Assembly: GCA_026985075.1 (NCBI GenBank)
Contig: JALSQX010000005.1
Coordinates: forward strand, 21,417 to 85,416
Direction: 5' to 3'
Length of the DNA stretch: 64,000 nt
Origin: Blastocatellia bacterium
Lineage (GTDB): Bacteria > Acidobacteriota > Blastocatellia > HR10 > J050
Below, one piece after another: positions 2,469 through 55,683 of the stretch (positions within the stretch are counted from its first letter, which is position 1; the number at the start of each line of letters is the position of its first letter). The notes under the pieces are model-generated. The model did not search any database, was not told where the DNA came from, and worked only from the letters and a program-made list of their open reading frames with translations. The translations under genes were made by a program, and so were the position numbers.

Positions 2469-4015
2469 TCATCGCCCCGCCTCACCATCCCGATCGATCG
2501 CCCGCGCCATCTCCCTCACCCAGTCGACGATCCAGGCAAAGGGCCAGGACGAGCGTTCATCGACCGTCCACCGGGACATGGATGACCCGTCATCGGCGGT
2601 GCCAGCATTGATGGCGGCTTCGTCGGCAAACCCCGCAGTTTCATCCTGGGCTTCGTTCAACCCCAATCCTCCACGACCCCAGGCTGGCTGAGCGCTTCGG
2701 CCATCATTGGTCAGTTGGATGAACTCCTGGCCATCAACTCGGAGAGCGTATATATCACTGCGTTCCACAACCGGCGCGATCAGGTTGGTGATGATCTGGA
2801 CGTCAAAGGCGAGGTATTGCCCGTCGGGCGACCAGCTCGGACTGGTGACAAACTGCGTGGTTCTGGCCGAGGTGAGCTGGTGCAGTCCCGTGCCATCGGC
2901 ATTGATCACAAAGAGATCAGACCAACCAAAGGTAGTGAGAGAGTGGTTTGAATGAAGGCGATCTGCCGCCCGTCCGGACGCCAACGACACTGGGTGATCA
3001 GTCGGATGAACTGGAATGAGTCGAGGGGCACTTGATAGATGGCCCGTGCGCTGCTCCCATCAGGGTTCATCGACACGAGGAACGCCTGACCGGCGCCTGG
3101 CCCCAGAGCAGCACAAGCGATGCAGTCTTGAACCGGAGACCAGTCGGCCCCACTCAGGTCGAAGATCTCGGCCCCCGGTATGGTCATCGGCTGGAGCTCT
3201 CCTCCGCTCCACAGAGCGAGATGATTCCCGCCGGTTGGTCGCCATTCGGGAAGCCCCGTATTGGGATTGGGTTGTCGGATCATGGAACGAACGTGGTTGG
3301 TGAGGACGAGTCGCCTGCCATCTGGCGACCACGAGGGTTAAATCGATTTCGAGAACGTCGGCTGTAAGGTAATGGTTCCGGCATTGATCGTCTGCCCCGG
3401 TCGGACCGTTATCCTGGCGAATCCCATCGAGAGACCCGGTCCGCCCAAGGAATCATTCACGGTCGCTTGGGCGCGCACCCAGATGGCGTCGCGAGGGACA
3501 TTATTGAGCACAAACCGGCCATCGGCATCACAACTCGCCGTCTGTGCCGCACCCTGGGCGCTGACGATGCATCCGGAGAGGGTGCCATTCTGACCAGGGA
3601 CCACGCGCCCGGTGACTGTCCCTGTAGGGCCGGGGAGTTGACCGAGGACGCCGAATCCAGTGAGCTGTCGCAGATTCGTGCCATCGAACCGGATGGCATA
3701 GAGACTCATCTCTTCGAGGCTGCGCAGTCCATTGTTGAAGTCTCCACTGAAGGCCAACTGACGGTAGTCTTTCGACCATACCGGGTCTTGAAGCCGGAGT
3801 GAAAACGCAAAGTTCGTGAGGCGCCTTCGCTCGGCTGGGTTCTGGACATCCATCAGCCAGAGATTGAAAAGCTTTCGCGCCGGATCGCGGGATCCCGAAT
3901 CCTCATGCACAAAGGCCATGAGGCCCGGTGGGAGGCCCGGTCGCTGGGCGATCGAATCCCGGCCAATGGCCAGGACCATGATGGCAAGGAGCATTCCTGT
4001 GATCCACCGTTTCAT
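2469..4015 (-). pseudogene. TolB-like PD40 beta-propeller protein with a CarboxypepD_reg-like domain. Broken into three ORF fragments: 3338-4015, 2906-3283 and 2469-2990.
   Basis: Signal peptide MKRWITGMLLAIMVLAIG. Repeated W(S/R)PDG(Q/R)xxAF blades occur in all three fragments. In-frame stop between 3338 and 3283. Frame change in the 2906-2990 overlap. Confidence 0.5.
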
Positions 4016-4085
4016 TGCTCATCTCCTCCCTTGGGGGAAGGCACAGCGGTTTGACCATGTGCCTCCCCCGGCAGATTGGGTACAG

Positions 4086-5045
4086 CTATTTGAACGGAGG
4101 GCATGTACCCCCCTGCTCCACCTTGACGGTGAACGGCCCAGTCGCCTGCACTTCGTTGGCAACGACCACGAAGAAAGCCGGACCAGCGGGGAAATTGAGC
4201 GTATTGGGACTCGTGCTCACATTACTGAGTTGCTCGGTGTTGGGATCCAGTGCCCCAATGAGCGGGGTGAACGCCGACGAGGTGGCGGTGATACGAACCG
4301 ATCCCCCTGGCGACTGGAACTGGAACACTTTAGCGAAGTGGACGCCGCCCTGCTGATCTTGAACCTGAGGATCATTGGACGTCAGCTCACAGGCCAGCTC
4401 CTGGTTCATCTGGATTTGAACGGGCGCGTCCAGCGTCCCACCCGTGCAACCGCCTCCAGATGCGCCACACGCCTGGCACTCGAGCATGACCGTATAGGGT
4501 CCGGCGCTCTGGGGTGAATCGCCGTTGATGACGAGCGCATACTCTCCCGGCGTGGACAGTACGCCGGTATATGTGACGGGCATGTTGGGCGCTCCAGCGG
4601 ATATCGCTTGGAGAAAGACGAATGGTCCCCGCTGCGCATCGAAGAAAAATAATGCCGATTGTACGGGGAAGCTCGACGATTGGGCCGTGATGATGAACGG
4701 CTGATTCGGTTGCATGGTCGTGAATGAATAGGCGTCGAAGTGAGTTCCGTCCGAAAAGGTTTGATCCGTTTGATCGATCGATCCTTTCTTCGTCTCTCCG
4801 CAACTAATGGGAGGAAATTGCTGTTGGGCAGCGATTTGACTCATCAATGTTCCCGATGAGGTCAGGACATGCCACTTCGAGCGGTTCTGAGCGGCATGTG
4901 ATGGCCCGGTCGCCGATGATCCCATCATCATCAGTGGCCAGACGATGATGAGGGCCAGGAACTTTCTGCTTCTAAGCCCCCGGCTCGACCGTCGTGGCGC
5001 GGTGCCGGCCTGGCCTCGCACCTCTGAGCTCTTTGCTCTCGTCAT
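4086..5045 (-). CDS. Secreted hypothetical protein with a Cys/Gly-rich segment.
   Basis: Strong SD (AGGAGG) before the ATG at 5045. Signal peptide RKFLALIIVWPLMMMGSSA. No recognisable catalytic motif. Confidence 0.6.
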   Translation of the reverse strand: MTRAKSSEVRGQAGTAPRRSSRGLRSRKFLALIIVWPLMMMGSSATGPSHAAQNRSKWHVLTSSGTLMSQIAAQQQFPPISCGETKKGSIDQTDQTFSDGTHFDAYSFTTMQPNQPFIITAQSSSFPVQSALFFFDAQRGPFVFLQAISAGAPNMPVTYTGVLSTPGEYALVINGDSPQSAGPYTVMLECQACGASGGGCTGGTLDAPVQIQMNQELACELTSNDPQVQDQQGGVHFAKVFQFQSPGGSVRITATSSAFTPLIGALDPNTEQLSNVSTSPNTLNFPAGPAFFVVVANEVQATGPFTVKVEQGGTCPPFK

Positions 5046-5497
5046 GACGAGTACCTCCTATCGTGGAGTTCGAGGATCGGCCAATTGACCGTCCTCATCT
5101 CATAACGCGCAAATCGGTCTGGGAATGGCTCATCATCGCAGAACATCAGAATGACGCTTCAATGCCCATGAGCCATGGGGCGCCGTTAGTAGTGCAGTGT
5201 TATATCTCGACCGCACCACTCGCTTTTTCGGGTCCGAGCTTGGGAAATACACCACGCTGGCTTCCCCATCGACGAGGCAGGAGGGTGGTCTCCCGTGAGT
5301 GAGTCGTTGTGGGGTATCCGGGAGAGCCGGAGGATGACTCCTTTGCTGGCTCGTCAGTGACGGTGAGTGGTTCTTTCCGGGACGCTGAACTGATGTCTCC
5401 GACCCTCGAGCAATTGGGAGGGACTCCAGGTCGGTGTGCTGATGTATGAGCTCCAGAGGGGAAATGCTCGTCGGTATCCGGTGGGGGCGTACTCCGC

Positions 5498-5929
5498 TCA
5501 AATATCCAGAATCACCATGGCCCGCCACCCATCCGCGGTGCGTTCCACCTGAAAGCGATGCAGCGTGACGGCTTTCACATCGACGAGAAGCTCGTGTTTC
5601 TGAGGGTCGAGTTCTTCTCCAGAGGCTTCGGCGGCGAGCAGGGCGTGATCATCTCGTCGGTCAATGTGGACCCGGGATACGCGCAACAGGAGCCGTTCGG
5701 CATCTTTGTAGTAAATGAGCTCCTGGAGGAACTCAAACAGGAGCATATCAATGGCATCGGCTTCGGCTCGGATCGTTCGGTGCTCACGGGGGATGATGGT
5801 CGTCAGATCTTCCACCATCACGTTCATCGTCGCGTCGGCGGCGGCGATGAAGAGTTCCTCGAGCGTTTGGCCCCAGGCTTCGAAGGCGACGTCAGCAGTG
5901 GCGATGTCATCCAGGTATCGGTAGGGCAT
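5498..5929 (-). CDS. Archease (RtcB activator).
   Basis: MPYRYLDDIATADVAFEAWG N-terminus is typical of the archease family. The ORF extends to 5977, but MPYRY is the likely start. Confidence 0.8.
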   Translation of the reverse strand: MPYRYLDDIATADVAFEAWGQTLEELFIAAADATMNVMVEDLTTIIPREHRTIRAEADAIDMLLFEFLQELIYYKDAERLLLRVSRVHIDRRDDHALLAAEASGEELDPQKHELLVDVKAVTLHRFQVERTADGWRAMVILDI

Positions 5930-5993
5930 CGAGATTCTCCCTCCACATCGGGCGAACGTGATCAGCGAGATACTCATTTCGGCTATCGGCCGA

Positions 5994-6911
5994 TCACCGC
6001 TCGCACGCGCGCAGTCGATTCACAATAGTCTCTCGGTCGTCGCTCGCGCCTTGGCCGATGAAGACCAGTTCGGTCTTTTGCGCAGCGAATTCTTCCAACT
6101 CCCATCGTCCCGTCACATAGTTGAACAGATAGCTTCCTTCGGGAAATCGAACGAATCCCTTGGCTCGATAAATGGCCGTCGGGAGTTCGGCAATGGCGTC
6201 TTCGAACTTGTCCCGATCCAAGAGCTTCTCGCTGGTGAAGGTGAAAGATTGCATGTTGACAGCAGTCTGACGAGAAGAAGGCTTGGGGCGTCCGCCAATG
6301 TCCAGACCGAGGAGTACATCGACATCGACATCGCATCGCACTGTCTTGAAGATGAGAGCCCTTTCGTTGAACGCGCGGACTTGAGCTTCGACGTCTTTCA
6401 CCTGTTCCGCGGTGATGAGATCGATCTTGTTGATGAGGATGACATCGGCCGCCTCCAGTTGCGTTCGAGCGGTGTAGCCGACGGCAGGGTATTTTATACT
6501 GGCATAAGCGTCGACGATACAGATGACGCTATCGAGGCGAACCTGGGGAAGATTATCTTCGACTTCGTACACCAGAGCATCGGCCTCGGCGACGCCAGTA
6601 GCCTCAACGACGATGAACTCCGGGTGCACGGTATCAATGATCTCCGCCACCGCTGCTTCGAATTCTCCGGTGAGCGAGCAGCAGACGCAACCGCCAGCGA
6701 GTTCGACGATCTGGACATTTTCGCCCTGAATGATTTGGCTATCGATAGCGATTTCTCCAAATTCGTTCATGAGCACGGCCAATCGCCGATCGGTCGTTTC
6801 CAATATACGGCGGAGCAACGTCGTCTTACCGCTGCCCAGTGATCCGGTGATGAGAGCAATGGGTGTTTTCATCATTGATGGTCGATTATTGGTCATGGTG
6901 AGAGGAGCCAT
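5994..6911 (-). CDS. COG0523 (CobW/Zng1-like) G3E GTPase metallochaperone.
   Basis: GSGKTTLL P-loop, GCVCCS metal-binding motif and CobW-C-like tail. The true start may be the MMKTP at about 6875. Confidence 0.85.
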   Translation of the reverse strand: MAPLTMTNNRPSMMKTPIALITGSLGSGKTTLLRRILETTDRRLAVLMNEFGEIAIDSQIIQGENVQIVELAGGCVCCSLTGEFEAAVAEIIDTVHPEFIVVEATGVAEADALVYEVEDNLPQVRLDSVICIVDAYASIKYPAVGYTARTQLEAADVILINKIDLITAEQVKDVEAQVRAFNERALIFKTVRCDVDVDVLLGLDIGGRPKPSSRQTAVNMQSFTFTSEKLLDRDKFEDAIAELPTAIYRAKGFVRFPEGSYLFNYVTGRWELEEFAAQKTELVFIGQGASDDRETIVNRLRACER

Positions 6912-6943
6912 GAGTCGATGGTACAGGCTTTGATGCGCATCGG

Positions 6944-8401
6944 TTATCCTTTGATGTTCCCGATAGGGACGAAGCGAACAACCCGTTTACTGATTCCCGC
7001 CAGCTCGGTCGCTTCAATCACGTCATCGATATTCTTGTAGGCCGGACCAGCTTCTTCGGCGAGTCCGGAGTAGGAGACGCTCCGTACGTAAATGCCGCGC
7101 GCCTCCATCTCCTTCTGGAGCTTCTTGCCCTGGAATTGCTTCCGCGCCTTCCGGCGACTCATGGTCCGACCGCTCCCATGGGCCGTGGTATAGAACGTTT
7201 GATCGCCGCTGGGAATGCCAGCGAGGAGATAAGACCCCGTCTCCATACTGCCGCCAATGATGACCGGTTGGCCGGTTTCTCGATAAATGTCGGGAAGTCC
7301 TTCCATGCCCGGACCAAAGGCGCGCGTCGCTCCTTTCCGATGGACGAGGACATCGCGCACCTCGCCGTCAACGACGTGTTTCTCCAGTTTGGCCGTATTG
7401 TGGGCGACATCGTATACCTGATGTAAACCGAGATCGGCCGGATCCTTATGAAAGACGTCAGAGAACACCTCGCGGATGCGATGAAGGATGACTTGCCGGT
7501 TGGCGAACGACATATTGATGCCGCATTTCATGGCCGCAAAATAATCCTGACCCTCGGGCGAGTGGAAGGGCGCACAGGCGAGTTCTCGATCCAGAATCTT
7601 GATCCCGTATTTGGTCTCCATCACTTTGAGAAAGATCTGCAGGTAGTCGGTGGCGACCTGGTGGCCGAAACCACGGCTGCCACAGTGGAACATGATCACC
7701 ACCTGATTGGGGAGCGTGATGCCGAACGCTTCGGCCAGCCGCCGGTCGAACACGTTCTCCGGCTTGGCCACTTGAATTTCCAGGTAGTGATTTCCCGAAC
7801 CCAAGGTACCAATCTGCTTGTAACCGCGTTCCACAGCTTTTTGGCTGATCTTAGAGGCGTCAGCGCCGGCGATACAGCCTCCTTCTTCCGTACGTTCGAG
7901 ATCTTCGGGCCATCCGTACCCGTTCTTGATGCACCAGCGAGCCCCTTGCTCCACCACTTGGCGGAACTCATCGTGGGAAATTCTCACAAACCCGGTGCTT
8001 CCTACGCCGGCCGGGACGCGCTGGAAGAGTTTGTCGACCAGCTCTCGCAGATGTGGTTTCACCTCTTCATACGTCAGATTGGTGAGCACGAGCCGCATGC
8101 CGCAATTGATGTCAAAGCCGATACCGCCCGGGGAGATGACGCCCGTCCGCGCATCCATGGCCGCCACGCCGCCGATAGGGAATCCATACCCCCAGTGACC
8201 ATCAGGCATACAGTAAGCGTACTTGAGAATACCCGGCAACGTAGCGACATTGGTCACTTGGTCGAAGACGCCTTCGTCCATTTCCCGGAGGAGCTTTTCC
8301 GTGGCGTAGATGCGTGCCGGAACGCGCATCCCGGGCTTATGTGTGGGGGGGATCTCCCAAACGGTATCCGAAATCTTCCTGATATCTTCAGGTATCGCCA
8401 T
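6944..8401 (-). CDS. rtcB: RNA-splicing ligase RtcB.
   Basis: GHWGYGFPIGG, HCGSRGFGHQ and AHGSGR motifs. The start at MAIPEDIRK has a GAGGAGGTG SD. The ORF track extends to 8476. Confidence 0.9.
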   Translation of the reverse strand: MAIPEDIRKISDTVWEIPPTHKPGMRVPARIYATEKLLREMDEGVFDQVTNVATLPGILKYAYCMPDGHWGYGFPIGGVAAMDARTGVISPGGIGFDINCGMRLVLTNLTYEEVKPHLRELVDKLFQRVPAGVGSTGFVRISHDEFRQVVEQGARWCIKNGYGWPEDLERTEEGGCIAGADASKISQKAVERGYKQIGTLGSGNHYLEIQVAKPENVFDRRLAEAFGITLPNQVVIMFHCGSRGFGHQVATDYLQIFLKVMETKYGIKILDRELACAPFHSPEGQDYFAAMKCGINMSFANRQVILHRIREVFSDVFHKDPADLGLHQVYDVAHNTAKLEKHVVDGEVRDVLVHRKGATRAFGPGMEGLPDIYRETGQPVIIGGSMETGSYLLAGIPSGDQTFYTTAHGSGRTMSRRKARKQFQGKKLQKEMEARGIYVRSVSYSGLAEEAGPAYKNIDDVIEATELAGISKRVVRFVPIGNIKG

Positions 8402-8538
8402 GGCTCGGTCACCTCCTCTCTCCAGCCGGGCATGGGCCTCCCCACGTCCGTCGGCTGGAGGGCATTCCTTGGTCAAACTGACGCGTGATTAGAATAAAAT
8501 ATAATCGCCAGTTGCCGTTCCGTCCAGCAGAAGTGGTG

Positions 8539-11031
8539 TTATTTGTAGACGGCGACGTCGGCTTTTCGGAGGATCTGTTGATGGTAGAAGAACCCACGCC
8601 TGAGAACGCGGGCGATAGCTTGACTGCGGCCGCCGGCGACGAGTTCGACAATATTGTGTTCCTCTGGTTGAAAGGGCTCCATGGGAATGGGGAGAATAGA
8701 CTTCATCCCGGCCGCCTGGAAGAGGTCTTTCAGCCGCCGCTCAAGGTCGTCATCCTGGCCTGGCGGAGCCACCTGACGATCGCAATAATCGATGGCGGCG
8801 ATGAGTTCTTCGGTCACCAGGCGATCGAGTTGCTGCTGGATATAGGCTCGTGGATCGGCGAATTTATCGATGGCCTCCTTCACAACACGCCCCAACTCTT
8901 CCAGGAAGATCATCCGCCCGGTGGGGCTGGCCGAGACCTGAATATGCAACTCCAGTTCTAATTGCCGACTCTCCAGTTGACTTCGGATGTGGACGATCTC
9001 CCGATGCAATCGCCGCGCTCGCTCTATGGCCCGACGAAGCTCATCGGGTTGGGTCCCCTGCTCTAGTGACAATCCTCGGGTGAGGTTCTCCAAGGCCGAG
9101 ACGATGGCCACCGCGCGTTCGGCCACCTCATCCAGCTCACCGGGCGAAGGGAGTTCCTCTTGAAAGAAGCGGTTGAGCATCTCCCCGGCGCGCTCGATGG
9201 TCGCCTCGATGGCCTGTTTACCGGAGCTTTCCATATGACCGGCGAAGATGAGCCCCAGGAGCCGAGCATAGAGGCGATCCTCGGTCGCTGGGGAGGGGAG
9301 CTTCGGGCGTGGAGTGACAGAAGAATCTCGTTCGGGGAGCATCCACTGACGAACGTGGTCGGTGATCTCCTGAAGTCGCTGATGATCCCGCTCGGATTGC
9401 TCACGTTGCTGCTTCAGCTCGCCGACCTGTTGGGCCAGGGCGCGTTCTAATTGGTCCATGCGCGCGCGAAGGGATTGCGTCTGCTTTTCCAGTTCTGCCT
9501 GAAGATCCCGGTTCAGTCGGTCAACGGTGAGAGCGAGGTCTTCTTGTATCTCCCGAACAGAGGGAGGTTGGGGGTGACTTTGAAGTCTTTGTTCTAACTC
9601 GTCCAACCGGTCGTTAATTTTATAGATATCGAGAACGGCCTCTTCGAGGGTTCCCAACTTCTGCTCGATCGTGAGCAGCTCTTTGGTGTGGATTTGAACC
9701 GTCTGAGTGAGATCGAGACCGGTGCGCTCCGGGTCACTGGGAGCATGTTGGAGAAGGGAGAGGTTCCTTCCGGGCCTCTCGGTCAAGCCTTCCTTCTCTG
9801 TTCGGCCTGATCGGGAGATCATACCCATTCGGCGCCACCACCGCCGGCGGCGCGGCTCGAGCCGTTCCGAAGGTTGGAGCTCGTCCTCCGAAGCCTTCTG
9901 TTGAGGGCGTTCCGGTTGTCGGGACGCCTGACGCTGCCGAACATATCGTCCAGCGAATCGGGCCAGCATCACTCCCATAAGGATGGCCAGTCCAATGAGC
10001 ACGGCGCGCCAGAGGGGGGACTCCAGGGCGTCGCGGAAGAACATCCTGGCGATCGCCATCAGCGAAGATGGTTCCCACTGGATGGGCATGACCCGACGCG
10101 GCCCGTGGGGTCGGACCCGGCCGGCCGCTATCGCTGCTCGCGCCACCGAAGGGGTGTCGCCAACCAATGTCGCTTCACCACCCTCGATGATCACGTTGGC
10201 CTGGCCGGCCTTTTTTGCCGCTTCTCTGAATGCGACCTGGAGAGTCAGTATCTTCTTGAAGCCGAACCATTGTTCATTGACCACATCCTGAGTCGATTCC
10301 AGCGTCGTGATTTCAGCCGATGTCTTCGGCGCCCAGATGCGAAGTCCTTCAGGAATATTGTGGAAACGAATGAACGTCCATCCAATGGGATCGCCGCGAA
10401 TCGAGAGCTTTTGGGGCTCGGGATAAGTTCCTTCCCCGGTGAAGAAATGTAATCGGGATGGTTCAACGGCGATGAGGTGGCGATCCGTCTCCCAAAAAAA
10501 CTTCAAGTAGTGCTTTTCGCCCTGGGCGGTGACGTGTCTCTCAGCAGCCAGTTGCCTGGCCCGCTCGGGCGTGCTCGGTTGACTCCTTCCATCAGGAAGG
10601 TGACCGATGAGATACTGGACGCTCACCGGTGAGGTGGCCGTGGCCTCGATCATCAGCGTGAGGGTGAACGTTCGTCGGAAGGGGTACCACCGTCCGGGCA
10701 GAATCTCCCCTTCTTCCCGACCAGTGGGAAGATCGCCAATGAGCTCGACATCTGGCGAGGGGAAATCGAACCGGATGAAGCGCCAGCCCCCGCGACTCAT
10801 TGTGAATCGGAGTGAGACCGCAATGGGAAGTTGACCGGTGAACGAATCGCTCACATCCTGGGTCATGGAACGAGGAGCAGAGATCTCTACCGTCACGAGG
10901 GGCGAGACAGGATGGGCCATCCCACGGACGACAGATCCAACGAGGACATCGATGAAGAGGACCGCTGAGATGATCGCATAATGGCGCCTCATAGGCCTTT
11001 CTCTGGAAACGTCAACAGTCTGGCGTCCCAA
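8539..11031 (-). CDS. 830-aa membrane protein: N-terminal TM, about 330-aa extracytoplasmic domain, second TM, about 300-aa coiled coil, C-terminal GrpE-like domain.
   Basis: Hydrophobic segments YAIISAVLFIDVLVGSVV and LWRAVLIGLAILMGVMLARFAG. Heptad-rich Q/E/L/R region. C-terminus PFQPEEHNIVELV...RGFFYHQQILRKADVAVYK aligns to the GrpE C-terminal PLDPNVHQAIAMV...KGYTLNGRTIRAAMVTVAK. Confidence 0.7.
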   Translation of the reverse strand: MGRQTVDVSRERPMRRHYAIISAVLFIDVLVGSVVRGMAHPVSPLVTVEISAPRSMTQDVSDSFTGQLPIAVSLRFTMSRGGWRFIRFDFPSPDVELIGDLPTGREEGEILPGRWYPFRRTFTLTLMIEATATSPVSVQYLIGHLPDGRSQPSTPERARQLAAERHVTAQGEKHYLKFFWETDRHLIAVEPSRLHFFTGEGTYPEPQKLSIRGDPIGWTFIRFHNIPEGLRIWAPKTSAEITTLESTQDVVNEQWFGFKKILTLQVAFREAAKKAGQANVIIEGGEATLVGDTPSVARAAIAAGRVRPHGPRRVMPIQWEPSSLMAIARMFFRDALESPLWRAVLIGLAILMGVMLARFAGRYVRQRQASRQPERPQQKASEDELQPSERLEPRRRRWWRRMGMISRSGRTEKEGLTERPGRNLSLLQHAPSDPERTGLDLTQTVQIHTKELLTIEQKLGTLEEAVLDIYKINDRLDELEQRLQSHPQPPSVREIQEDLALTVDRLNRDLQAELEKQTQSLRARMDQLERALAQQVGELKQQREQSERDHQRLQEITDHVRQWMLPERDSSVTPRPKLPSPATEDRLYARLLGLIFAGHMESSGKQAIEATIERAGEMLNRFFQEELPSPGELDEVAERAVAIVSALENLTRGLSLEQGTQPDELRRAIERARRLHREIVHIRSQLESRQLELELHIQVSASPTGRMIFLEELGRVVKEAIDKFADPRAYIQQQLDRLVTEELIAAIDYCDRQVAPPGQDDDLERRLKDLFQAAGMKSILPIPMEPFQPEEHNIVELVAGGRSQAIARVLRRGFFYHQQILRKADVAVYK

Positions 11032-11165
11032 CCGGCAAGATAGGAAATCTCACCCTCCGACCTCTCTCCACGTTATATTCTGACCATATTTAGTGGCTGA
11101 GCGCAACCCAATCCAGTGGTGGAGAGACCGGCGACATTCACGAGGCACTGTGGGAATAGTACCAG

Positions 11166-12200
11166 TCAGCCATGATCGACGCGCTGAGCGTCGATAGGAC
11201 GCTCTTCTCTCAGGGAATGAAGGGAGCGATGACGGAGCGCTGATGAGGATCTCAACGCCTCCTGGAGTTTCTCGACCATGCGCCGTTGGATCTCCTCTAG
11301 CCGCCCTTCTACGGTGCAGCCGGCGGCATTGCGATGACCCCCGCCACCGAAATACTCGGCGATCTTGGCGACGTTAATGGCGTCCTTGGAGCGCAGCGAG
11401 GCACGATAGACGTTGGGTCTGACTTCCTTTAAAAAAAGAACGACATCGATATCGGCTACGGCGAGGGGATAGTTGGCCAGTCCATCAGCATCCTCTTCGG
11501 TGGCCTGCGCCGCGGCCAACATCTGTTGGGTCACGGCCAGATAGGCGATGCGGCCCGTCTGGTCGCGCTGCAGGGAACTGAGGGCCAGTCCCATGAGCTT
11601 CAGTTTGCTGAACGGTTGCGAGTAATAAATGGCGCGGGAGATGCGCGCCGGATTGGCTCCGAGCCGGATGAGCTCGCTAGCCACCTTGAGCGTGCGGGCG
11701 GTCGTATTGGGGAAATGGAACGAGCCGGTGTCCGTCAGCAGGGCGGCATAAATGCACTCGGCAATCTCAGCAGTCACGCGCGCTCCCGTCGCTTTGCACA
11801 GGTTGTAAATCATTTCACCTACTGCCGACGCCGTCGAGTCGATCCAATTGATATCGCCGAAGCGAACCGTGGTGGTGTGGTGATCGATGTTGACCACGAA
11901 CTGTTCGGAGAGCCCGGGAAGGCCCGGCCGATCGATGTCACTGCATTCGATGACGAAAACGGCGTCGTATTGGTGGGGGTGATCAAATTGGTTGATTCTC
12001 TGCACGCGACGGGCGCCCGGCAGCGTCTGGTATGCTCTGGGAATGTGATCGCGCATCACGACGACGGCGTCTTTGTTCAACTCTTGGAGCATGAGCATCA
12101 GAGCCAGCGAAGACCCCACACTGTCTCCATCCGGTCGAACGTGGGAGGTAATAGCAAATCGGTGTTTGCTGTCGATCAACTCAACGACTTCACTCAGCAT
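11166..12200 (-). CDS. nrnA: DHH/DHHA1 phosphoesterase (NrnA-like oligoribonuclease / pAp phosphatase).
   Basis: ITSHVRPDGDSVGSSLAL, DHH and GGGH motifs. Confidence 0.8.
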   Translation of the reverse strand: MLSEVVELIDSKHRFAITSHVRPDGDSVGSSLALMLMLQELNKDAVVVMRDHIPRAYQTLPGARRVQRINQFDHPHQYDAVFVIECSDIDRPGLPGLSEQFVVNIDHHTTTVRFGDINWIDSTASAVGEMIYNLCKATGARVTAEIAECIYAALLTDTGSFHFPNTTARTLKVASELIRLGANPARISRAIYYSQPFSKLKLMGLALSSLQRDQTGRIAYLAVTQQMLAAAQATEEDADGLANYPLAVADIDVVLFLKEVRPNVYRASLRSKDAINVAKIAEYFGGGGHRNAAGCTVEGRLEEIQRRMVEKLQEALRSSSALRHRSLHSLREERPIDAQRVDHG

Positions 12201-37104: not shown

Positions 37105-37698
37105 ATGGCCACGACGCCGTCTGCGTTGAACATGGACACTCAACTGGCTCGAGCTTCTGCCGCGGGAGATCACCATGCTTTTGAAACGCTGTACCATCGG
37201 CATCATCAACGAGTCTATAGCCTCTGTCTCCGAATGCTACAGAATCCCGAGGAGGCTGAAGACCTCACCCAGGATGTGTTTCTCCATGTCTATCGAAGGA
37301 TTGGCACATTTCGTGGCACTTCGGCTTTCACCACCTGGCTTCATCGACTCACCATCAATACGATACTAATGTACATGCGGCGGCGGCAACGATGGCGCGC
37401 TGAGCTGTCGCTCGACGCTGGCGACCTTGGCGCGCTCGGAGAGAAAAATGCGCCTTGGCCGGGACGCGAGCTCCGGATAGAACCGATCGATTTGGAACGA
37501 GCCATCAATCGGTTACCCGTCGGCTATCGAGTGGTATTTGTGTTACATGACATAGAAGGCTACGAGCATGCTGAGATCAGCCGATTACTGGGCGTCAAGA
37601 TCGGGACGAGCAAGTCTCAGTTGCACAAGGCGCGATTACAGCTCCGACGAATGTTGACATACAAGGTGGGGGATGATCCAGGCCGGAGTACATCATAG
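37105..37698 (+). CDS. ECF (sigma-70 family) RNA polymerase sigma factor.
   Basis: Regions 2 and 4 present: DLTQDVFLHVY, and VFVLHDIEGYEHAEISRLLGVKIGTSKSQL. Confidence 0.85.
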   Translation: MATTPSALNMDTQLARASAAGDHHAFETLYHRHHQRVYSLCLRMLQNPEEAEDLTQDVFLHVYRRIGTFRGTSAFTTWLHRLTINTILMYMRRRQRWRAELSLDAGDLGALGEKNAPWPGRELRIEPIDLERAINRLPVGYRVVFVLHDIEGYEHAEISRLLGVKIGTSKSQLHKARLQLRRMLTYKVGDDPGRSTS

Positions 37699-38787
37699 AG
37701 CGATGCTCTTTGACGCCTCCTCCTGGTGGGGGCAGCAAGGACCGGGGGGAATGGCCTTACCGTGGGGGCAGAACCGAGGGTGGCCGAGAAATGTGCAGAT
37801 GCGATTGGTTGCCTCCGGACTCAAGATGTGTTCGAAGACGCAGGCTTCCACTTCCGCCTGGTAGTTGGACATACTGAGCGTTTGGGAGAACAGGAGTTCG
37901 GCCAGCCGGTGTCGTCGAATCAGGGCGCGCGCCCGGGCCTCACCTTCCGGGGTGAATGTGAGGCGGTGGTCGCGCAGAGCGATGAGCCGGTTCAGTCGGC
38001 CGGACAGCAGGTACGATTCACCGCGTCGGCCGCAAACTCGTCGAAGACCTTCCAGAGTCAATTGATCGGTCTCTTTTAATATCCACAGTTGTTTCATCAT
38101 CTCGTCGATTGTTTCCTCTACTCTCTCAGAGGTGGGATCGAATCCGGCAATGCGCCCATGCTCTAATTGGATCTGGCGATCGGCTCGCCGCCCTATTTGA
38201 ACGTCATGCGTCACGATGACGATGGTGTGCCCCTCTCGATGCAGTTGAGTGAACAGGTCCATCACGAGGCGTTCATTCTCGGCGTCCAGATTCCCCGTCG
38301 GTTCATCGGCCAATAGCAGAGGAGGCTGGTTGATCAACGCGCGAGCGATGCACACGCGTTGCTGTTCGCCGCCGGAGAGTTCCGATGGGAGATGATGCCA
38401 TCGATCGCCCAAGCCGACTCGCTGGAGCGCCTCCAGCGCTTCCGCTTCATCGACCATGCTGTGGTAATATTGCGCCAGCATGACGTTTTCCACGGCGGTG
38501 AGATAGGGGATGAGGTGGAATTGTTGAAAGATGAGGCCGATGTACTCGCGGCGGAATTCGGTCAACGCGGCGCTATCCAGTTGGGTGAGATCGTGGCCAT
38601 CGATGATGACGCGACCCTCGTCTGGCGTATCCAGGCCGCCGAGCAGATTCAGAAGCGTGGTCTTCCCGGAACCCGATGGCCCCATGATCGAGACCCACTC
38701 GCCACGTTCAATGGTCAAGCTGACGCGATCCAAGGCGCGAACCGAGCCATATTGTTTCGTGACCTCCTCCAACGTAACGAACGACAT
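37693..38787 (-). CDS. ABC transporter ATP-binding protein (MacB/LolD type) fused to a C-terminal DtxR-family metal-dependent regulator domain.
   Basis: Walker [10 protein letters not shown], signature [15 protein letters not shown], Walker [13 protein letters not shown]. Then a DtxR-like module, [10 protein letters not shown]...[10 protein letters not shown]...[10 protein letters not shown], with conserved Cys/Glu/His metal ligands. Confidence 0.85.
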
Positions 38788-38789
38788 GG

Positions 38790-39938
38790 TTACTCCCCTC
38801 TGAGAACCGCCGCCGGTTCAATAGCCAGAGCGCGCTTGATGGGCGCATAAGCGGCCAGACCACAGATCAGCAGGGCAACGCCCAAAATCCCCGGGATGGT
38901 CTCGGGCCTCGGCGAGATATGTGCGTGGAACAGTCGCTCTCCCACAAGTCGGGAACAGAGGACGCCGCCCAGGTAGCCCAACCATCCTCCGAGGAATGCG
39001 AAGATGAAGGCTTCGCTCAAAAAGAGCGAGAGGATCTCGCCTCGCTGGGCCCCCAGCGCTTTCATCAGTCCAATTTCACGCTGGCGTTCGACGACCACGG
39101 CCATCATCGTCGTCATCACGCCGAGCGCCGAGATGATCAAGATGAGCGTCGTCGAGGCGAGCAACATCCACTCGATCTTGCTCAGAATCCGGCCTTCGGC
39201 GAGGGCGATTCTCCTCAGTGGACGTGCCTCCAGGCCTTCCCACCGACGCTCGATGTCACGCGCCAGCTGTTCAACCTGTTCGAACCGCCCAACAGCATTC
39301 ACAGCAAGAAGTGAGACTTCTCCCTCCTGCCTCAGGGCGTACTGAAGGAGAGGGAGATTGACAAACACCTGTCCGTCTTCGGCCTCACCCGTGGTCACGA
39401 TGCCGGTCACGACGAATTCCTCGTTCCAACGCTCCGCATTCAGGCTGAGCCGAAATCGGTCGCCGACGGCCAGGTGAAACCGTCGCGCGATTTCCGAGCC
39501 AATCATTCCCGAGGCGAGATCATCGGTACGGGCCCACTCTCCCTCTACCTGCCAGTATGGATTCACTCTTTTGATCTCTTCGAACCGCACGCCGGCCACC
39601 ATGACAACGTCAGCGGCCTTGTTTGTTTGCATCATCGCCGGGGTGTAAAGGTAGGAGGCCACTGCCACGATCTCGCCGGTCCGGGACAGCGGCATCAGGT
39701 CCTCGAGTCGAGGCTCGAGCATCGTTTTGTTCGGGCTCTTCGGGATCACGATGAGGTTGGCGCCGTAGGTTCTCAGCTCGCGCTTCATTTTACTCTCGAC
39801 ATCATACGTCAGATTCAGTAGCGTCGCGGCGGCCGTAACCCCAACGCTCAGCGCGACCAGGGCGATGACCACCTTGGACGCCCGACGCGTCAGCGATCTG
39901 AGCAGAATGCGAAAGAAGAGTTTCTGCCTTCTCGTCAT
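38790..39938 (-). CDS. FtsX-family ABC permease (MacB/LolE-like).
   Basis: N-terminal TM, large periplasmic domain, C-terminal FtsX helices. Confidence 0.8.
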   Translation of the reverse strand: MTRRQKLFFRILLRSLTRRASKVVIALVALSVGVTAAATLLNLTYDVESKMKRELRTYGANLIVIPKSPNKTMLEPRLEDLMPLSRTGEIVAVASYLYTPAMMQTNKAADVVMVAGVRFEEIKRVNPYWQVEGEWARTDDLASGMIGSEIARRFHLAVGDRFRLSLNAERWNEEFVVTGIVTTGEAEDGQVFVNLPLLQYALRQEGEVSLLAVNAVGRFEQVEQLARDIERRWEGLEARPLRRIALAEGRILSKIEWMLLASTTLILIISALGVMTTMMAVVVERQREIGLMKALGAQRGEILSLFLSEAFIFAFLGGWLGYLGGVLCSRLVGERLFHAHISPRPETIPGILGVALLICGLAAYAPIKRALAIEPAAVLRGE

Positions 39939-41212
39939 GTGCTCCTCAGAATGTCAACCGGCCGCAAACGAAGCAACATTCGGACCGGAGCGGCGCAGCC
40001 GATGAGGGTGATGAGTTCGGCGGCGATGAGCGAGATGGGAAGGATCAGGAGATTGACGCCAATATGAACGCCGAAGACCGCTTGTCCGATCACCTGAGCG
40101 AGAAAGACGCCAATGGCGCCCCCGATCACCGCCCCGATGAGGCCGATGATGAGAGCCTCGGCCAAAAATAAGCGGACGACCGGGCTATTACCCGATCCAA
40201 TGGCCTTCAGGAGTCCAATCTCGGAGCGGCGTTCGAGCACCATGGTCATCATCGTGCTCATCACCGCCAGAGCGGCGGCCATGAGGGCGAGCGCCACAAT
40301 GATCATCATCATGAGCATCACCTTATTCAGGATGCGCCCTTCGGATTCAGCGACCCGGCGAATCGGCTTCACCTCGGCGGTGGGAAAGATCTCGTTCAGT
40401 TGGAAGGCGATGGAGCTGATAAAGGGCGTGCAATACCAGCTCTCGAATTCCTCAGGCGATAGCTCCCGGGGCGAGCGTCCCAATCGCTCGTAGACCTTAT
40501 CTTCAGGGGTCGTCAAGGCGCTCACCAGGATGCGCTCCACCTGCCCCTGCCGATGCGTGAGCTCCTGCACGATGTCCAGCGTCGTGAACAGCTGATCGTC
40601 CTCGGCTCCTCCAGTGGCTACGATTCCAGCGATCGAGAAGGAAGCCCGTTTCTCTCCGACCTCGATCGTGATCCTTTCTCCCGGGCGAAGCTGAAACGCC
40701 TCGGCCAGCGCGCGCCCCACCATGACCTGTGGTTGCTCGGCATCGTCCGCGATCCACGCGCCGGTGACGTGCCAATATGGCGCCAGGTGCCTCATGCCCG
40801 TCACGACCGTCTCCCCTTGACAGGGCACCGGTCGGCTGAACCATGTGCCCACCAGAGTGACGATTCGGCCGCGAAAGGTCGCCGAGGTAGTCAGAAAGGG
40901 AGTGAAGGCGAGGATATTATTACGCCAGAAAATTGTCTTGATTTTGGGAATGAGGGGTTCGGGCAGGAAAGTCTCTCGCCCCAAGCGACTCACATCTTCG
41001 CCGCCCACTTCCAGGGGGAGCGTCCGGCCCTTGGGAATGATGACCAGATTGGCACCGAAGGCTTTCAACTCGCGATTGATTTTATCGCCGATATCCAGAG
41101 CGATGGTGGTCATGGCCACGGCCACGCTGGTACCTAATACCACCGCTGACGTGGCAATGGCTTTGCGCCGTCGCTGTCGTCGGAATGATTGTGCCACTAT
41201 CCGGAAGAACAT
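39935..41212 (-). CDS. FtsX-family ABC permease (second copy).
   Basis: Same architecture. Start/stop overlaps the neighbouring permease. Confidence 0.8.
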   Translation of the reverse strand: MFFRIVAQSFRRQRRRKAIATSAVVLGTSVAVAMTTIALDIGDKINRELKAFGANLVIIPKGRTLPLEVGGEDVSRLGRETFLPEPLIPKIKTIFWRNNILAFTPFLTTSATFRGRIVTLVGTWFSRPVPCQGETVVTGMRHLAPYWHVTGAWIADDAEQPQVMVGRALAEAFQLRPGERITIEVGEKRASFSIAGIVATGGAEDDQLFTTLDIVQELTHRQGQVERILVSALTTPEDKVYERLGRSPRELSPEEFESWYCTPFISSIAFQLNEIFPTAEVKPIRRVAESEGRILNKVMLMMMIIVALALMAAALAVMSTMMTMVLERRSEIGLLKAIGSGNSPVVRLFLAEALIIGLIGAVIGGAIGVFLAQVIGQAVFGVHIGVNLLILPISLIAAELITLIGCAAPVRMLLRLRPVDILRST

Positions 41213-41247
41213 CTTGAGGCGCCCACTCTTGTGCTGGACACATCACC

Positions 41248-42669: not shown

Positions 42670-42670
42670 G

Positions 42671-42685
42671 AGATCATTTTGAAAA
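42671..42685. promoter_or_regulatory. AT-rich palindrome TCATTTT-g-AAAATGA next to the start codon of the FTR1 fusion gene.
   Basis: 7-1-7 inverted repeat, seen directly in the sequence. Confidence 0.4.
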
Positions 42686-42919
42686 TGAATATCAACTTCA
42701 AAGAAGGAGAGACTACCATCGGTCGACCAGAAAGTCAAGGGGGGTCGCCAATGGGCTGTGGTGAATCGCCGATGACGGGCGACCGTTTCGACTCGCCGAG
42801 AGTGAGTGTTTCCAGATTGGTGAAGCCCCTGCCTCGACCGTCGATCAATTTGACAGTGGTGAGGTTCAGACCTATATTTTGCGGGCAATGGCCATTGTCG
42901 GTACGAGGAGAGAGGAGCT

Positions 42920-54252: not shown

Positions 54253-55683
54253 TCAGGCGAGTTTCGCCGCACGGTGAGCGCTCGCCCTTCGAGGCCGGAA
54301 TTGATCGGGGTTGATATGATACCGCTTCATTTTCTGATAGAGATGCCCTTCGAACATTCCCGTGGCTCGAGCCGTCTGCGCCACGTTGCCACGGTGCAGG
54401 GACAAGTGGTGAAGAATGTATTGGCGCTCGAAATCGCCAAGAAATCGCTCCTTGGCAACCTTGAAGGGCGCGTTGAAATCTGGTGTCGAGGGGAAAGCCT
54501 CTCGCATGAGTTGCCGGGATGGGTGGAGTTCGTCAGGCAGGTGCTCGGGGCACACTTCGCCGTCATCGCACATGATGACGGCTCGCTCGATCGCGTTCTG
54601 CAGTTCTCTGACATTGCCCGGCCAGTCGTGTCGTTCCAGAAGCTGAAGAGCTTCTGGGGAGAGCCGAGGGGCTGGCCGGTTCAGTCGCTGTGAACATTTC
54701 TGGAGGAAAAAGTGGACCAGAGCAGGGATATCATCTTTTCGCTCCCGGAGGGGCGGCAGATGGAGGTGGACGACATTCAGTCGGTAATACAAATCGGCGC
54801 GAAATCGCCCCGCGCGCACGGCATCGGAGAGATTTTGATTGGTGGCGGCCAGCACGCGGACATCGGTGTGGTAGACGCGCGTGTCTCCCACGCGGTTGTA
54901 TTCTCCTTGTTGGAGCACGCGCAACAGCTTCAGTTGGAAGGTGGGACTGACGTCTCCAATCTCGTCCAGGAAGATCGTCCCTCCATTGGCGATCTCGAAG
55001 AAGCCGGGCTTGGCCTGATCAGCCCCCGTGAATGCGCCACGGGCGTGGCCAAACAACTCTGACTCCAGCAACGTCTCGGACAGAGCGGCACAGTTGACGA
55101 CGACAAACGGGCGACTGGCGCGCCGACTCAGTCGATGAATCTCTTGTGCCAGCAGCTCCTTTCCCGTGCCCGTCTCTCCTGTGATGAGGATAGTCGTATC
55201 GGTTCGAGCCGCTTTGGCGGCCATGGTGAGAATCGACTGGAAAGCGGGGTTCTGCGTGATGATCGTCGGCATGGAGGGACTCTGGCGCCAGGAGAGCGGA
55301 GGGGATGAGGGAGGCAAGCGCTCGCTCAGCGCGCGGTCCAGACAGCGTATGAGCTCATGCTCCGCAAACGGTTTGATGATCAGTTGAGAGGCCCCATGTT
55401 CGATGACTTCGCTGAGCACTTTCACCGGCGTCTCCTCGGCGGCAATCACCAAGGCGCTCATCCGCAGTAGCTCGCGCACAATCCGGTTCGCGCAGTCGTG
55501 ATTCGAGATACCCCGAGGCCCAATCTCGGTGATCGTGGTAATGATGGGATGACGTTGAATCTGTTCCATCGCGCTCGTCGCCGTCTCGGCGATGAGAACG
55601 CGATACCCGCGGTGGGTCAAGGTCCTGAATAATAGGTTTTGGATCTCTCGATCTTGAGTGACTAGCAGAATCGTCCCACTCAT
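54253..55683 (-). CDS. Sigma54-dependent response regulator (NtrC family, possibly PrsR-like).
   Basis: REC domain. AAA+ domain with GETGTGKE, GAFTGA and ESELFGH. C-terminal Fis HTH. Confidence 0.9.
   Translation of the reverse strand: MSGTILLVTQDREIQNLLFRTLTHRGYRVLIAETATSAMEQIQRHPIITTITEIGPRGISNHDCANRIVRELLRMSALVIAAEETPVKVLSEVIEHGASQLIIKPFAEHELIRCLDRALSERLPPSSPPLSWRQSPSMPTIITQNPAFQSILTMAAKAARTDTTILITGETGTGKELLAQEIHRLSRRASRPFVVVNCAALSETLLESELFGHARGAFTGADQAKPGFFEIANGGTIFLDEIGDVSPTFQLKLLRVLQQGEYNRVGDTRVYHTDVRVLAATNQNLSDAVRAGRFRADLYYRLNVVHLHLPPLRERKDDIPALVHFFLQKCSQRLNRPAPRLSPEALQLLERHDWPGNVRELQNAIERAVIMCDDGEVCPEHLPDELHPSRQLMREAFPSTPDFNAPFKVAKERFLGDFERQYILHHLSLHRGNVAQTARATGMFEGHLYQKMKRYHINPDQFRPRRASAHRAAKLA

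Follow-up and report, generated by a model that had tools for sequence, protein, structure and literature searches.

A three-gene unit encoding the RNA ligase RtcB, a GTPase of the COG0523 (G3E) group and archease is described here from a Blastocatellia bacterium of the Acidobacteriota (assembly GCA_026985075.1). The unit lies in a stretch of 64,000 nucleotides (nt), positions 21,417 to 85,416 of contig JALSQX010000005.1, and this whole stretch is called the window. The three genes are ordered head to tail on the minus strand, at 5498-8476 according to an earlier interpretation made without database searches (the sequence-only reading), and Pfam domains bear out the genes. The features are as follows, in the direction of transcription:

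8402 to 8538, minus strand: spacer 5' of rtcB, 137 nt, with a promoter-like site, a leader stem-loop and a Shine-Dalgarno sequence
6944 to 8401, minus strand: rtcB, 485 amino acids (aa), 3'-phosphate RNA ligase of the archaeal/eukaryal, archease-dependent type
6876 to 6943, minus strand: rtcB-GTPase intergenic sequence, 68 nt
5994 to 6875, minus strand: COG0523 (G3E) GTPase of an RtcB/archease-linked subfamily, 293 aa
5930 to 5993, minus strand: GTPase-archease intergenic region, 64 nt, containing the archease Shine-Dalgarno sequence
5498 to 5929, minus strand: archease, 143 aa, of a clade without the usual His before the TAD metal-binding motif

The gene content thus stands as first read, and the starts have been refined. 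For rtcB, the ATG at 8401, with the Shine-Dalgarno sequence GAGAGGAGG ahead of it, is preferred to the TTG at 8476 that opens the longest open reading frame (ORF; 8476..6944), and the resulting 485 aa match most homologues called elsewhere (483-486 aa). The GTPase start was set at the ATGATG at 6875 from homologue lengths (292-298 aa) and no longer at 6911; of the in-frame alternatives upstream of it, neither 6896 nor 6911 is as likely. The archease start at 5929 is preceded by GGAGGGAG, and 143 aa is also the length of 15 of the 16 full-length homologues first compared, the remaining one having 146 aa. The spacer of 137 nt was given exactly, since it runs from 8402 to 8538 and the stop of the upstream gene lies at 8539. 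Likewise, neither RtcA nor an RtcR-type regulator flanks the operon (ten nearby ORFs scanned, 1-15 kb), and a scan of the ORFs of 280 aa or more at 15-64 kb of the window met no RTC-cyclase domain, which agrees with the absence claimed earlier. The window holds one sigma-54 activator (54253..55683, minus strand; REC, Sigma54_activat and HTH_8 domains), which is of the NtrC and not the RtcR type and lies 46 kb away, and is therefore regarded as unrelated to the rtcB operon. Next to this activator, at 51007-53151, is a GAF/GAF histidine kinase that also has a receiver domain.

Judged by its sequence, the middle gene encodes a true COG0523 G3E GTPase in which the nucleotide site, the CxCC motif and the arginine finger are intact and which belongs to no characterised subfamily. 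Its two domains score well above the Pfam cut-offs (cobW 156 bits against 20.7; CobW_C 61.4 bits against 22), and the motif noticed earlier was found in the middle ORF as GGCVCCS. Across 49 unique members of the subfamily, the P-loop, NEFGE, GCVCC, ExTG, NKxD and RAKG motifs are 100% conserved; the G-domain invariants are G11-L20, N37/E38/G40/D45, E91/T93/G94, D122, Q139 and N149/K150/D152, and the N-terminal domain thus has Walker A (GxxGxGKT), switch I, Walker B (ExxG) and NKxD. The cysteines C63, C65 and C66 of the metal-binding CxCC motif, which for COG0523 is defined as lying between G2 and G3 (PMC11672702), are 100% conserved in the same 49 members, and so are R237, K239 and G240 of the RxKG motif (YRAKGF) in CobW_C, which was recently shown to be the self-activating, GTPase-activating arginine finger of COG0523 (PMC13001444). 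Beside switch II stands an invariant Glu97 that is specific to the subfamily, other COG0523 proteins having mostly His (20/59) or Asp (16/59) there, and Arg113, Gly133, Asn252, Glu261, Phe263 and Cys291 are further invariants of this kind. The protein is acidic (isoelectric point 4.6), with one His in 293 aa and no His-rich linker. An AlphaFold2 model (predicted local distance difference test score, pLDDT, 77) matched best YjiA among the PDB structures (1nij/4ixm, E ~1e-16), followed by HypB and UreG. The NCBIfam equivalog cut-offs were all missed, with 120 bits against 332 for CobW (TIGR02475), 109 against 361 for YjiA (PRK11537) and 104 against 600 for ZigA (NF038288). Being below every curated equivalog cut-off, the GTPase is taken as a separate subfamily.

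The gene evolves, as its substitution pattern indicates, under purifying selection: over 52 complete operons, its median ratio of nonsynonymous to synonymous substitution rates (dN/dS) is 0.089, which lies between those of RtcB (0.065) and archease (0.12). It had been considered beforehand that the protein might cluster with Zur-regulated zinc chaperones unrelated to RNA repair. This is not what was found, as the low ZigA, YjiA and CobW scores, the single His without a His-rich linker and the membership in a subfamily of its own argue against a Zur-type zinc chaperone. Genes of the znu, zur and cob groups were not found beside the operon, either in the window or in the flanks of related loci. 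An association with phages or defence was also considered and rejected, because no member of the subfamily was found in viral contigs and the PADLOC defence models gave only a weak P-loop match of 22.9 bits.

In a search of 5.8 billion proteins, the best 120 matches were 58-98% identical to the GTPase, mostly 285-305 aa long (range 258-336) and derived from Acidobacteria, Anaerolineae and Syntrophobacteraceae; where named at all, they are called 'G3E family GTPase' or 'CobW family GTP-binding protein'. A gene-neighbourhood survey, already suggested with the sequence-only reading, was made with the family alignment against one genome per GTDB species, which gave 80 loci, and the window RtcB and archease were then located by tblastn. 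Where the GTPase is 49% identical or more, as it is in 12 loci, rtcB is always found upstream and archease downstream on the same strand (among them Halothece, Scytonema, Myxacorys, Latescibacterota, Nitrospirota, three Verrucomicrobiota, Tectomicrobia, Acidobacteria and an archaeal metagenome-assembled genome, MAG), whereas none of the 68 loci with COG0523 genes at most 42% identical shows rtcB or archease within the stored flanks. Seven further members traced to contigs have rtcB upstream in 7/7 and archease downstream in 6/7 cases, and rtcB precedes three of four traced fusion proteins. In total, 22 of the 23 members have rtcB as a neighbour and 22 have archease beside them or in the same chain, while the controls give 0/68 (Fisher p = 3e-20), so that chance adjacency can be dismissed and the linkage is not peculiar to this genome. 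Further occurrences are known from Cyanobacteria, Acidobacteriota, Verrucomicrobiota, Nitrospirota, Latescibacterota, Tectomicrobia, Chloroflexota, Syntrophobacteraceae and archaeal MAGs; the 23 members examined span at least eight bacterial phyla in addition to the archaeal MAGs. Cultured cyanobacterial carriers are Aerosakkonema, Trichocoleus sp. DQ-A3 and Microcoleus sp. FACHB-831.

The genes around the unit vary from locus to locus, and Pfam annotation of 89 flanking ORFs revealed lineage synteny only, such as HtrA-like proteases and trehalose-6-phosphate synthase. In most other loci the gap from rtcB to the GTPase gene is 0-7 nt, compared with 68 nt here, and the GTPase and archease genes, separated by 64 nt here, elsewhere abut, overlap by 11-34 nt or are fused in frame. 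These differing flanks and the gaps of typically 0-7 nt or less than zero point to a self-contained, co-translated cassette. A dedicated functional tie between the GTPase and the RtcB-archease system is almost certainly real. The sequence-only reading had proposed a metal-insertion or GTP-gating factor dedicated to RtcB; the dedicated tie holds, and the partner is the RtcB-archease pair and not RtcB alone. Two exceptions were met: one locus on an 841-kb contig has rtcB and the GTPase gene with no archease nearby (L173, 6873-7600), and one GTPase::archease fusion gene (L182, 1-995) has no rtcB within 995 nt upstream or 5 kb downstream.

Some units carry additional DNA. In a Syntrophobacteraceae MAG, a 524-nt insertion without a convincing ORF separates rtcB from the GTPase gene (L084:5285-5808) and resembles a small repeat or mobile-element insertion. 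The operon of one archaeal MAG (L007:1695-8770) has been lengthened by additional genes on the same strand: rtcB and the GTPase gene are separated by a DsbD_TM-like membrane protein, an LplA-like protein and an ORF without known function, a second unknown ORF stands between the GTPase and archease genes, and an AhpC/TSA peroxiredoxin overlaps the archease end. An Anaerolineae locus (L082) has a thioredoxin-fused pyridine-nucleotide disulfide oxidoreductase three genes downstream, and the extra genes of these last two loci may share a redox theme.

The tie to archease is closest where the two proteins form one chain. A profile search of 1.84 billion cluster representatives yielded a protein of 437 aa (P0247) with cobW, CobW_C and archease domains, which is encoded in an NCBI genome and was also recovered independently from a Logan assembly. 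The architecture is present in 11 distinct clusters at 90% identity from NCBI, JGI, ENA and Logan sources, and in one contig (L179) the GTPase frame can be followed without a stop straight into archease. The fusions have 436-452 aa, are 41-50% identical to P0247 except for one close relative, and keep all GTPase and archease motifs, while their junction linkers differ between three groups. Such Rosetta-stone fusions suggest that the GTPase works physically close to archease, and hence at the RtcB active site that the archease tip enters; they are the strongest single indication of this proximity. A candidate RtcB::GTPase fusion (P0288) was rejected since its RtcB part is full of apparent frameshifts. 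Taken by its gene arrangement, the GTPase is co-inherited and evidently co-transcribed with the ligase and its activator archease, and is sometimes covalently fused to the latter.

In one lineage of two genomes (GCA_964505185.1 and GCA_037446715.1, with P0247 and P0394 proteins 88% identical), the order is rtcA (divergent), rtcB, GTPase::archease and an Nramp+Usp fusion of 627 aa (L179:2403-8224; L183, L184). The Nramp/MntH-type gene begins 26 nt after the fusion gene on the same strand, and no other metal transporter was found beside any of about 60 operons. Nramp/MntH proteins are importers of Mn2+ and Fe2+, and this arrangement may be a hint of a link to manganese.

The ligase of the window is of the archease-dependent type. 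The window RtcB scores 565.8 bits with PF01139 and 560 bits against RtcB of Pyrococcus horikoshii, and alignment with the P. horikoshii, T. thermophilus and human proteins revealed conservation of the metal ligands (Asp, Cys and three His) and of the nucleophile His; the E. coli-type RtcB model NF007153 gave 141 bits, below its cut-off of 407. Archease (PF01951, 138.8 bits) can be aligned to its P. horikoshii and human counterparts and keeps the metal-site residues whose roles have been described (PMC3973293; PMC10944509), namely the Asp of TAD (...ATAD...) and the C-terminal Asp-Ile (...ILDI-COOH). Its N-terminal motif, YLDDIATAD, is common to the whole clade. Almost all clade archeases read [YF]L[ED][ED][IV][AG][TI]AD, with [DE][IV][AG] replacing the usual His region, while human, Pyrococcus, Thermomicrobium, Haloarcula and Natrinema archeases have DH[TEP]AD at the same site. 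His9 of P. horikoshii archease, three residues before the metal-binding Asp, is highly conserved and functionally important according to mutagenesis (PMC3973293), and the comparison implies that its equivalent has been lost in this clade; in three operons without the GTPase, archease has a His at the Thr/Ile position of the motif, nearby but not equivalent. Two residues have also been gained in the beta-hairpin that enters RtcB. The clade RtcB has Cys240 beside the site-A ligand His (HCGSRG) and Ala407 in place of the Cys before the nucleophile His, together with Glu387 and Ser410. The His-less archease N-terminus and these four RtcB residues were considered as correlates of the GTPase and rejected, because they are equally present in 32 operons that lack it (see the survey below); they are clade markers.

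Three Mn2+ are bound by RtcB and archease together: Cys, His and Asp of RtcB form sites A and B, while Asp51, Asp178 and the C-terminal carboxylate of archease form site C (PMC10944509). Without Mn2+ there is no guanylylation, and equimolar Zn2+ abolishes it; of the sites, B is labile, and whether archease carries its own metal was left undecided by the authors (PMC10944509). The metal-binding carboxylates of archease are essential (PMC3973293). With this in mind, the GTPase is probably a GTP-driven maturation or proofreading factor for the metal centre in the activation complex that RtcB and archease form. GTP binding and hydrolysis would set the metal state of a specific client, as in UreG, HypB, CobW, Nha3 and ZNG1, and the client would be the composite active site created when the archease tip inserts into RtcB. 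The GTPase could load the correct metal, or it could remove or withhold an incorrect metal that binds more tightly, for instance Zn2+, and so leave the site to Mn2+; removal or withholding would fit the known thiolate chemistry of COG0523 sites better than loading. If the GTPase raised fitness only under some metal regimes, this would explain why the gene has been lost repeatedly.

A reverse survey, in which metagenome contigs were scanned with the window RtcB, bears on this last point. Among the closest 80 relatives (72-88% identical), the GTPase gene lies directly downstream of rtcB in 43 loci (33 complete three-gene units and 10 cut by a contig end), archease follows rtcB directly without the GTPase in 32, neither gene is present in two though the contig has room, two are uninformative because the contig ends, and one holds only a GTPase remnant. 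To explain its distribution on a neighbour-joining tree of 94 RtcB sequences, the GTPase must have been gained or lost at least 11 times.

Several of the observations weigh against the metal-centre role. About 44% of the closest rtcB-archease operons do without the third gene, which is intercalated in about 55%. In the remnant locus (L101, 5462-5626), the GTPase is reduced to an N-terminal piece of 54 aa abutting the archease start, and two further loci, L091 and L093, have DNA that is 91-93% identical over rtcB, archease and the genes downstream, but are set apart by a clean indel of about 990 nt, which corresponds exactly to the GTPase gene (L091:5460-6450). Given these absences, the GTPase is accessory: the dependence on the RtcB-archease pair is one-sided, since the pair can do without the GTPase, which is dispensable for ligase function in general. 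The co-divergence of GTPase and RtcB (pairwise-identity correlation r = 0.93, as strong as the 0.91 for RtcB and archease) speaks for the tie, but is also expected from plain co-inheritance of a gene cassette. Neither a metal-sensor box nor a riboswitch was detected upstream with Rfam and a crude k-mer census of 89 upstream regions, and metal transporters or regulators do not recur beside the operon according to Pfam on 89 flanking ORFs, the Nramp lineage excepted. Finally, Mg-GTP-bound YeiR and YjiA bind Mn(II) very weakly (dissociation constant, Kd, at least 1e-4 M) and Zn and Co tightly (PMC7895991), which makes the CxCC site a poor candidate for a Mn carrier. As a separate observation, CTGAGT repeats are found at the junction in both deletion cases (L101; L091/L093) and might mediate deletion.

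Two refinements of the metal-centre role would fit the weak manganese affinity. The subfamily may have evolved harder ligands, with the invariant Glu97 and the acidic surface as candidate sites, or the competing metal may be its target, in which case a local, GTP-gated sink for Zn would keep the Cys/His sites of RtcB free for Mn2+. In its most specific form, which is put forward tentatively as one possibility, the GTPase would be a GTP-driven metal proofreader and not a simple inserter; it would dock through archease, to which it is covalently fused in some lineages, and its CxCC motif would strip or exclude tightly binding Zn2+ or another wrong metal so that the weakly binding Mn2+ occupies the RtcB Cys/His sites.

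Other explanations of the same gene arrangement have to be considered. The invariance of the CxCC cysteines, a motif that forms the high-affinity metal site in every characterised COG0523 protein (PMC11672702), speaks against a GTP-dependent switch or assembly factor without metal transfer, in which the nucleotide state gates archease docking on or release from RtcB and CxCC is structural or regulatory. Such a factor might couple ligase activation to the GTP pool or recycle RtcB after each turnover. RtcB itself uses GTP and archease controls both guanylylation and multiple turnover (PMC3973293; PMC4604427); fusion to archease would suit an adaptor or switch as well as a chaperone, the C-terminal domain of COG0523 is thought to be a client-binding, self-activating (GTPase-activating protein-like) module (PMC13001444), and the 89 flanking ORFs show no recurrent metal-homeostasis context. 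Yet no G3E GTPase is known to work without a metal or metallocofactor (PMC9164220), and the activity of the client is metal-dependent and Zn2+-sensitive (PMC10944509), so a role of this kind is considered unlikely. It is distinctly less probable that the GTPase serves archease itself, by metallating the carboxylate site C or chaperoning the protein, with RtcB as an indirect beneficiary. The convincing fusions are to archease only and none is to RtcB (P0288 being ridden with frameshifts), the fusion gene of L182 has no rtcB nearby, and archease may deliver a pre-bound third metal to RtcB (PMC10944509). On the other hand, L173 retains rtcB and the GTPase without archease, the GTPase always directly follows rtcB in the gene order, and the hard carboxylates of site C are unlikely to need thiolate-mediated delivery. 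Since archease acts only in complex with RtcB, this explanation is in practice a variant of the metal-centre role at the composite site.

A very improbable role is that of a redox guardian, in which the GTPase, being rich in Cys, would shield the metal-ligand Cys of RtcB from metal-catalysed oxidation or repair it, as PYROXD1 does in metazoa. The RTCB active-site Cys is prone to metal-induced oxidative inactivation (PMC12263435), and a peroxiredoxin and a DsbD-like membrane protein belong to the expanded archaeal-MAG operon, with the thioredoxin-fused disulfide oxidoreductase near the Anaerolineae locus. Such neighbours are rare, however (Pyr_redox_2 in 2/89 flanking ORFs), and confined to single lineages; G3E GTPases have no known thiol-oxidoreductase activity, and a simple thiol buffer would not need the strictly conserved GTPase motifs and arginine finger. 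It is hardly credible at all that a generic zinc-homeostasis COG0523 protein or a cobalamin CobW stands beside rtcB by chance or misannotation, as database names such as 'CobW family GTP-binding protein' and 'cobalamin biosynthesis protein P47K' would have it, and as the Zur regulation of many COG0523 proteins (PMC2770081) might lead one to expect. The neighbourhood survey, with its 22/23 linked members against 0/68 other COG0523 loci, effectively refutes this, and it is further opposed by CobW, YjiA and ZigA scores far under their cut-offs, by the single His without any His-rich stretch, by flanks free of cob, znu and zur, and by the existence of archease fusions. A GTP-driven factor for the metal centre of the RtcB-archease complex is thus retained as the favoured reading.

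The leader of the operon was also inspected. The spacer contains a sigma-70-like site (-35 TGGACG at 8526, 17 nt, -10 TATATT ending at 8498), for which the evidence is weak because a consensus scan gave three sites against 1.5 expected. A stem-loop of about 12 + 6 bp (CCUCCAGCCG...CGGCUGGAG, about 8420-8463, minus strand) lies just 5' of the Shine-Dalgarno sequence; the 100-nt leader folds at -39.9 kcal/mol (z = -2.2), 4 of 200 shuffles being as good, and this stem-loop was not seen in the other loci. No Rfam family matched in window positions 4000-11500. The k-mer census returned only Shine-Dalgarno-like words and one lineage-specific hairpin motif. The latter, ATCGTnnAAAACGAT(C/T)TTT, belongs to a Verrucomicrobia-like soil clade and consists of a 5-bp hairpin followed by a T run some 25 nt ahead of the start codon, the whole lying about 20-40 nt before the rtcB start (L006, L010, L130, L135, L147, L149, L150, L152, L154, L156, L157 and L167). 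Of the 89 upstream regions, 12 contain the word AAAACGAT, for which 0.7 would be expected, and the genes concerned have no obvious Shine-Dalgarno sequence. The motif could be an attenuator or a protein-binding site.

Immediately upstream of rtcB, an 830-aa protein is encoded (8539-11031, minus strand), which has by eye an apparent membrane-spanning segment and a long, charged, coiled-coil-like middle part; its sole domain is GrpE-like and C-terminal (residues 764-830, 34.8 bits), and it is not a canonical GrpE. Elsewhere in the window, a minus-strand cluster (37693-42888) resembles metal uptake. It comprises an ABC ATPase in an unusual fusion to a DtxR/MntR-type C-terminal domain (37693-38787; ABC_tran and Fe_dep_repr_C), two permeases of the MacB/FtsX type (38790-41212) and an FTR1 iron permease to which FtrD-like and YHS domains are fused (41248-42888).

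Among known systems, the closest are Nha3, the activator of Fe-type nitrile hydratase, CobW of the cobaltochelatase/B12 pathway and ZNG1, which serves METAP1. They share the G-domain with CxCC and the CobW_C domain with RxKG, and here as there one subfamily would serve one client; the gene of the presumed client is adjacent, as for Nha3 and CobW. Unlike these, the presumed client here is an RNA ligase that works with a protein activator, to which natural fusions occur, and the GTPase has neither a His-rich linker nor a Zur context and falls below the curated equivalog cut-offs. The client also uses Mn2+ as its catalytic metal, and the accessible parts of two metallochaperone reviews describe no NTPase chaperone for that metal (PMC11672702; PMC9164220). 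UreG and HypB, the SIMIBI-type G3E nickel insertases, resemble the present protein in fold, GTP-coupled metal handling and an accessory gene beside the matured enzyme; they differ in being dimeric, without CobW_C, and in acting via scaffolds (UreEFD, HypA), to which archease would be the nearest adaptor analogue here.

The two-gene rtcB-archease 'tRNA splicing operon' (PMC3973293; PMC4604427) has the same ligase type and activator, co-transcribed, with the same conserved RtcB metal ligands and archease site of Asp and C-terminal carboxylate. In contrast, a third gene is intercalated in about 55% of the operons closest to that of the window, archease of this clade has no His9 equivalent, and rtcB comes first, whereas Thermomicrobium and Natrinema have archease before rtcB. 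PYROXD1 of metazoan RTCB is an accessory protein that likewise keeps the metal/Cys active site functional; it is a flavoprotein oxidoreductase whose fold and chemistry are unrelated to the GTPase. The E. coli RtcR-RtcA-RtcB operon also has an RtcB-family ligase, and RtcA joins the three-gene unit in two lineages (L005; L179/L183), but the RtcB of the window is of the archease-dependent archaeal/eukaryal type and has no RtcR or RtcA beside it. The E. coli operon is not known to have archease or this GTPase alongside it.

In the literature searched, no link of COG0523, CobW or G3E proteins to RtcB or archease was found, and a mention in specialised surveys of COG0523 networks or RNA repair is possible. 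RtcB and archease are unmentioned in the founding phylogenomic paper on COG0523 (Haas 2009) and in the accessible parts of the 2012 cyanobacterial COG0523 survey and the 2024 Chem Rev review of metallostasis, and both they and the word 'manganese' are absent from the 2022 Drennan review of NTPase metallochaperones. Papers on the RtcB-archease operon present a two-gene operon, sometimes with a tRNA m5C methyltransferase in addition (PMC3973293); Figure 1B there uses Synechococcus, Syntrophus and Pelobacter, and the three-gene form occurs in or near these taxa. Apparently, the GTPase as a third component of the RtcB-archease system has not been described before.

For almost all bacterial COG0523 members, bona fide clients are unidentified, which is a long-standing obstacle in that field. 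The present subfamily offers a client encoded in the genome and, in 11 clusters, in the same polypeptide, and would represent a pair of COG0523 chaperone and client in which the class of client is without precedent and natural fusions to the client's activator occur. Because crystal structures of the client exist, its metal sites are defined and guanylylation and ligation can be assayed simply, the putative metallochaperone-client complex is directly testable, and genetics are feasible since members occur in cultured cyanobacteria. For RtcB, the GTPase is a candidate third component of the bacterial RtcB-archease system, bearing on the metal occupancy of sites A, B and C in vivo and on the way in which a Cys/His site avoids being poisoned by Zn2+. 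If the GTPase does act as an archease-docked metal proofreader, it would be the first G3E/COG0523 chaperone with a nucleic-acid enzyme as its client, and RNA ligation in these organisms would be activated by a three-protein machine with two GTP sites.

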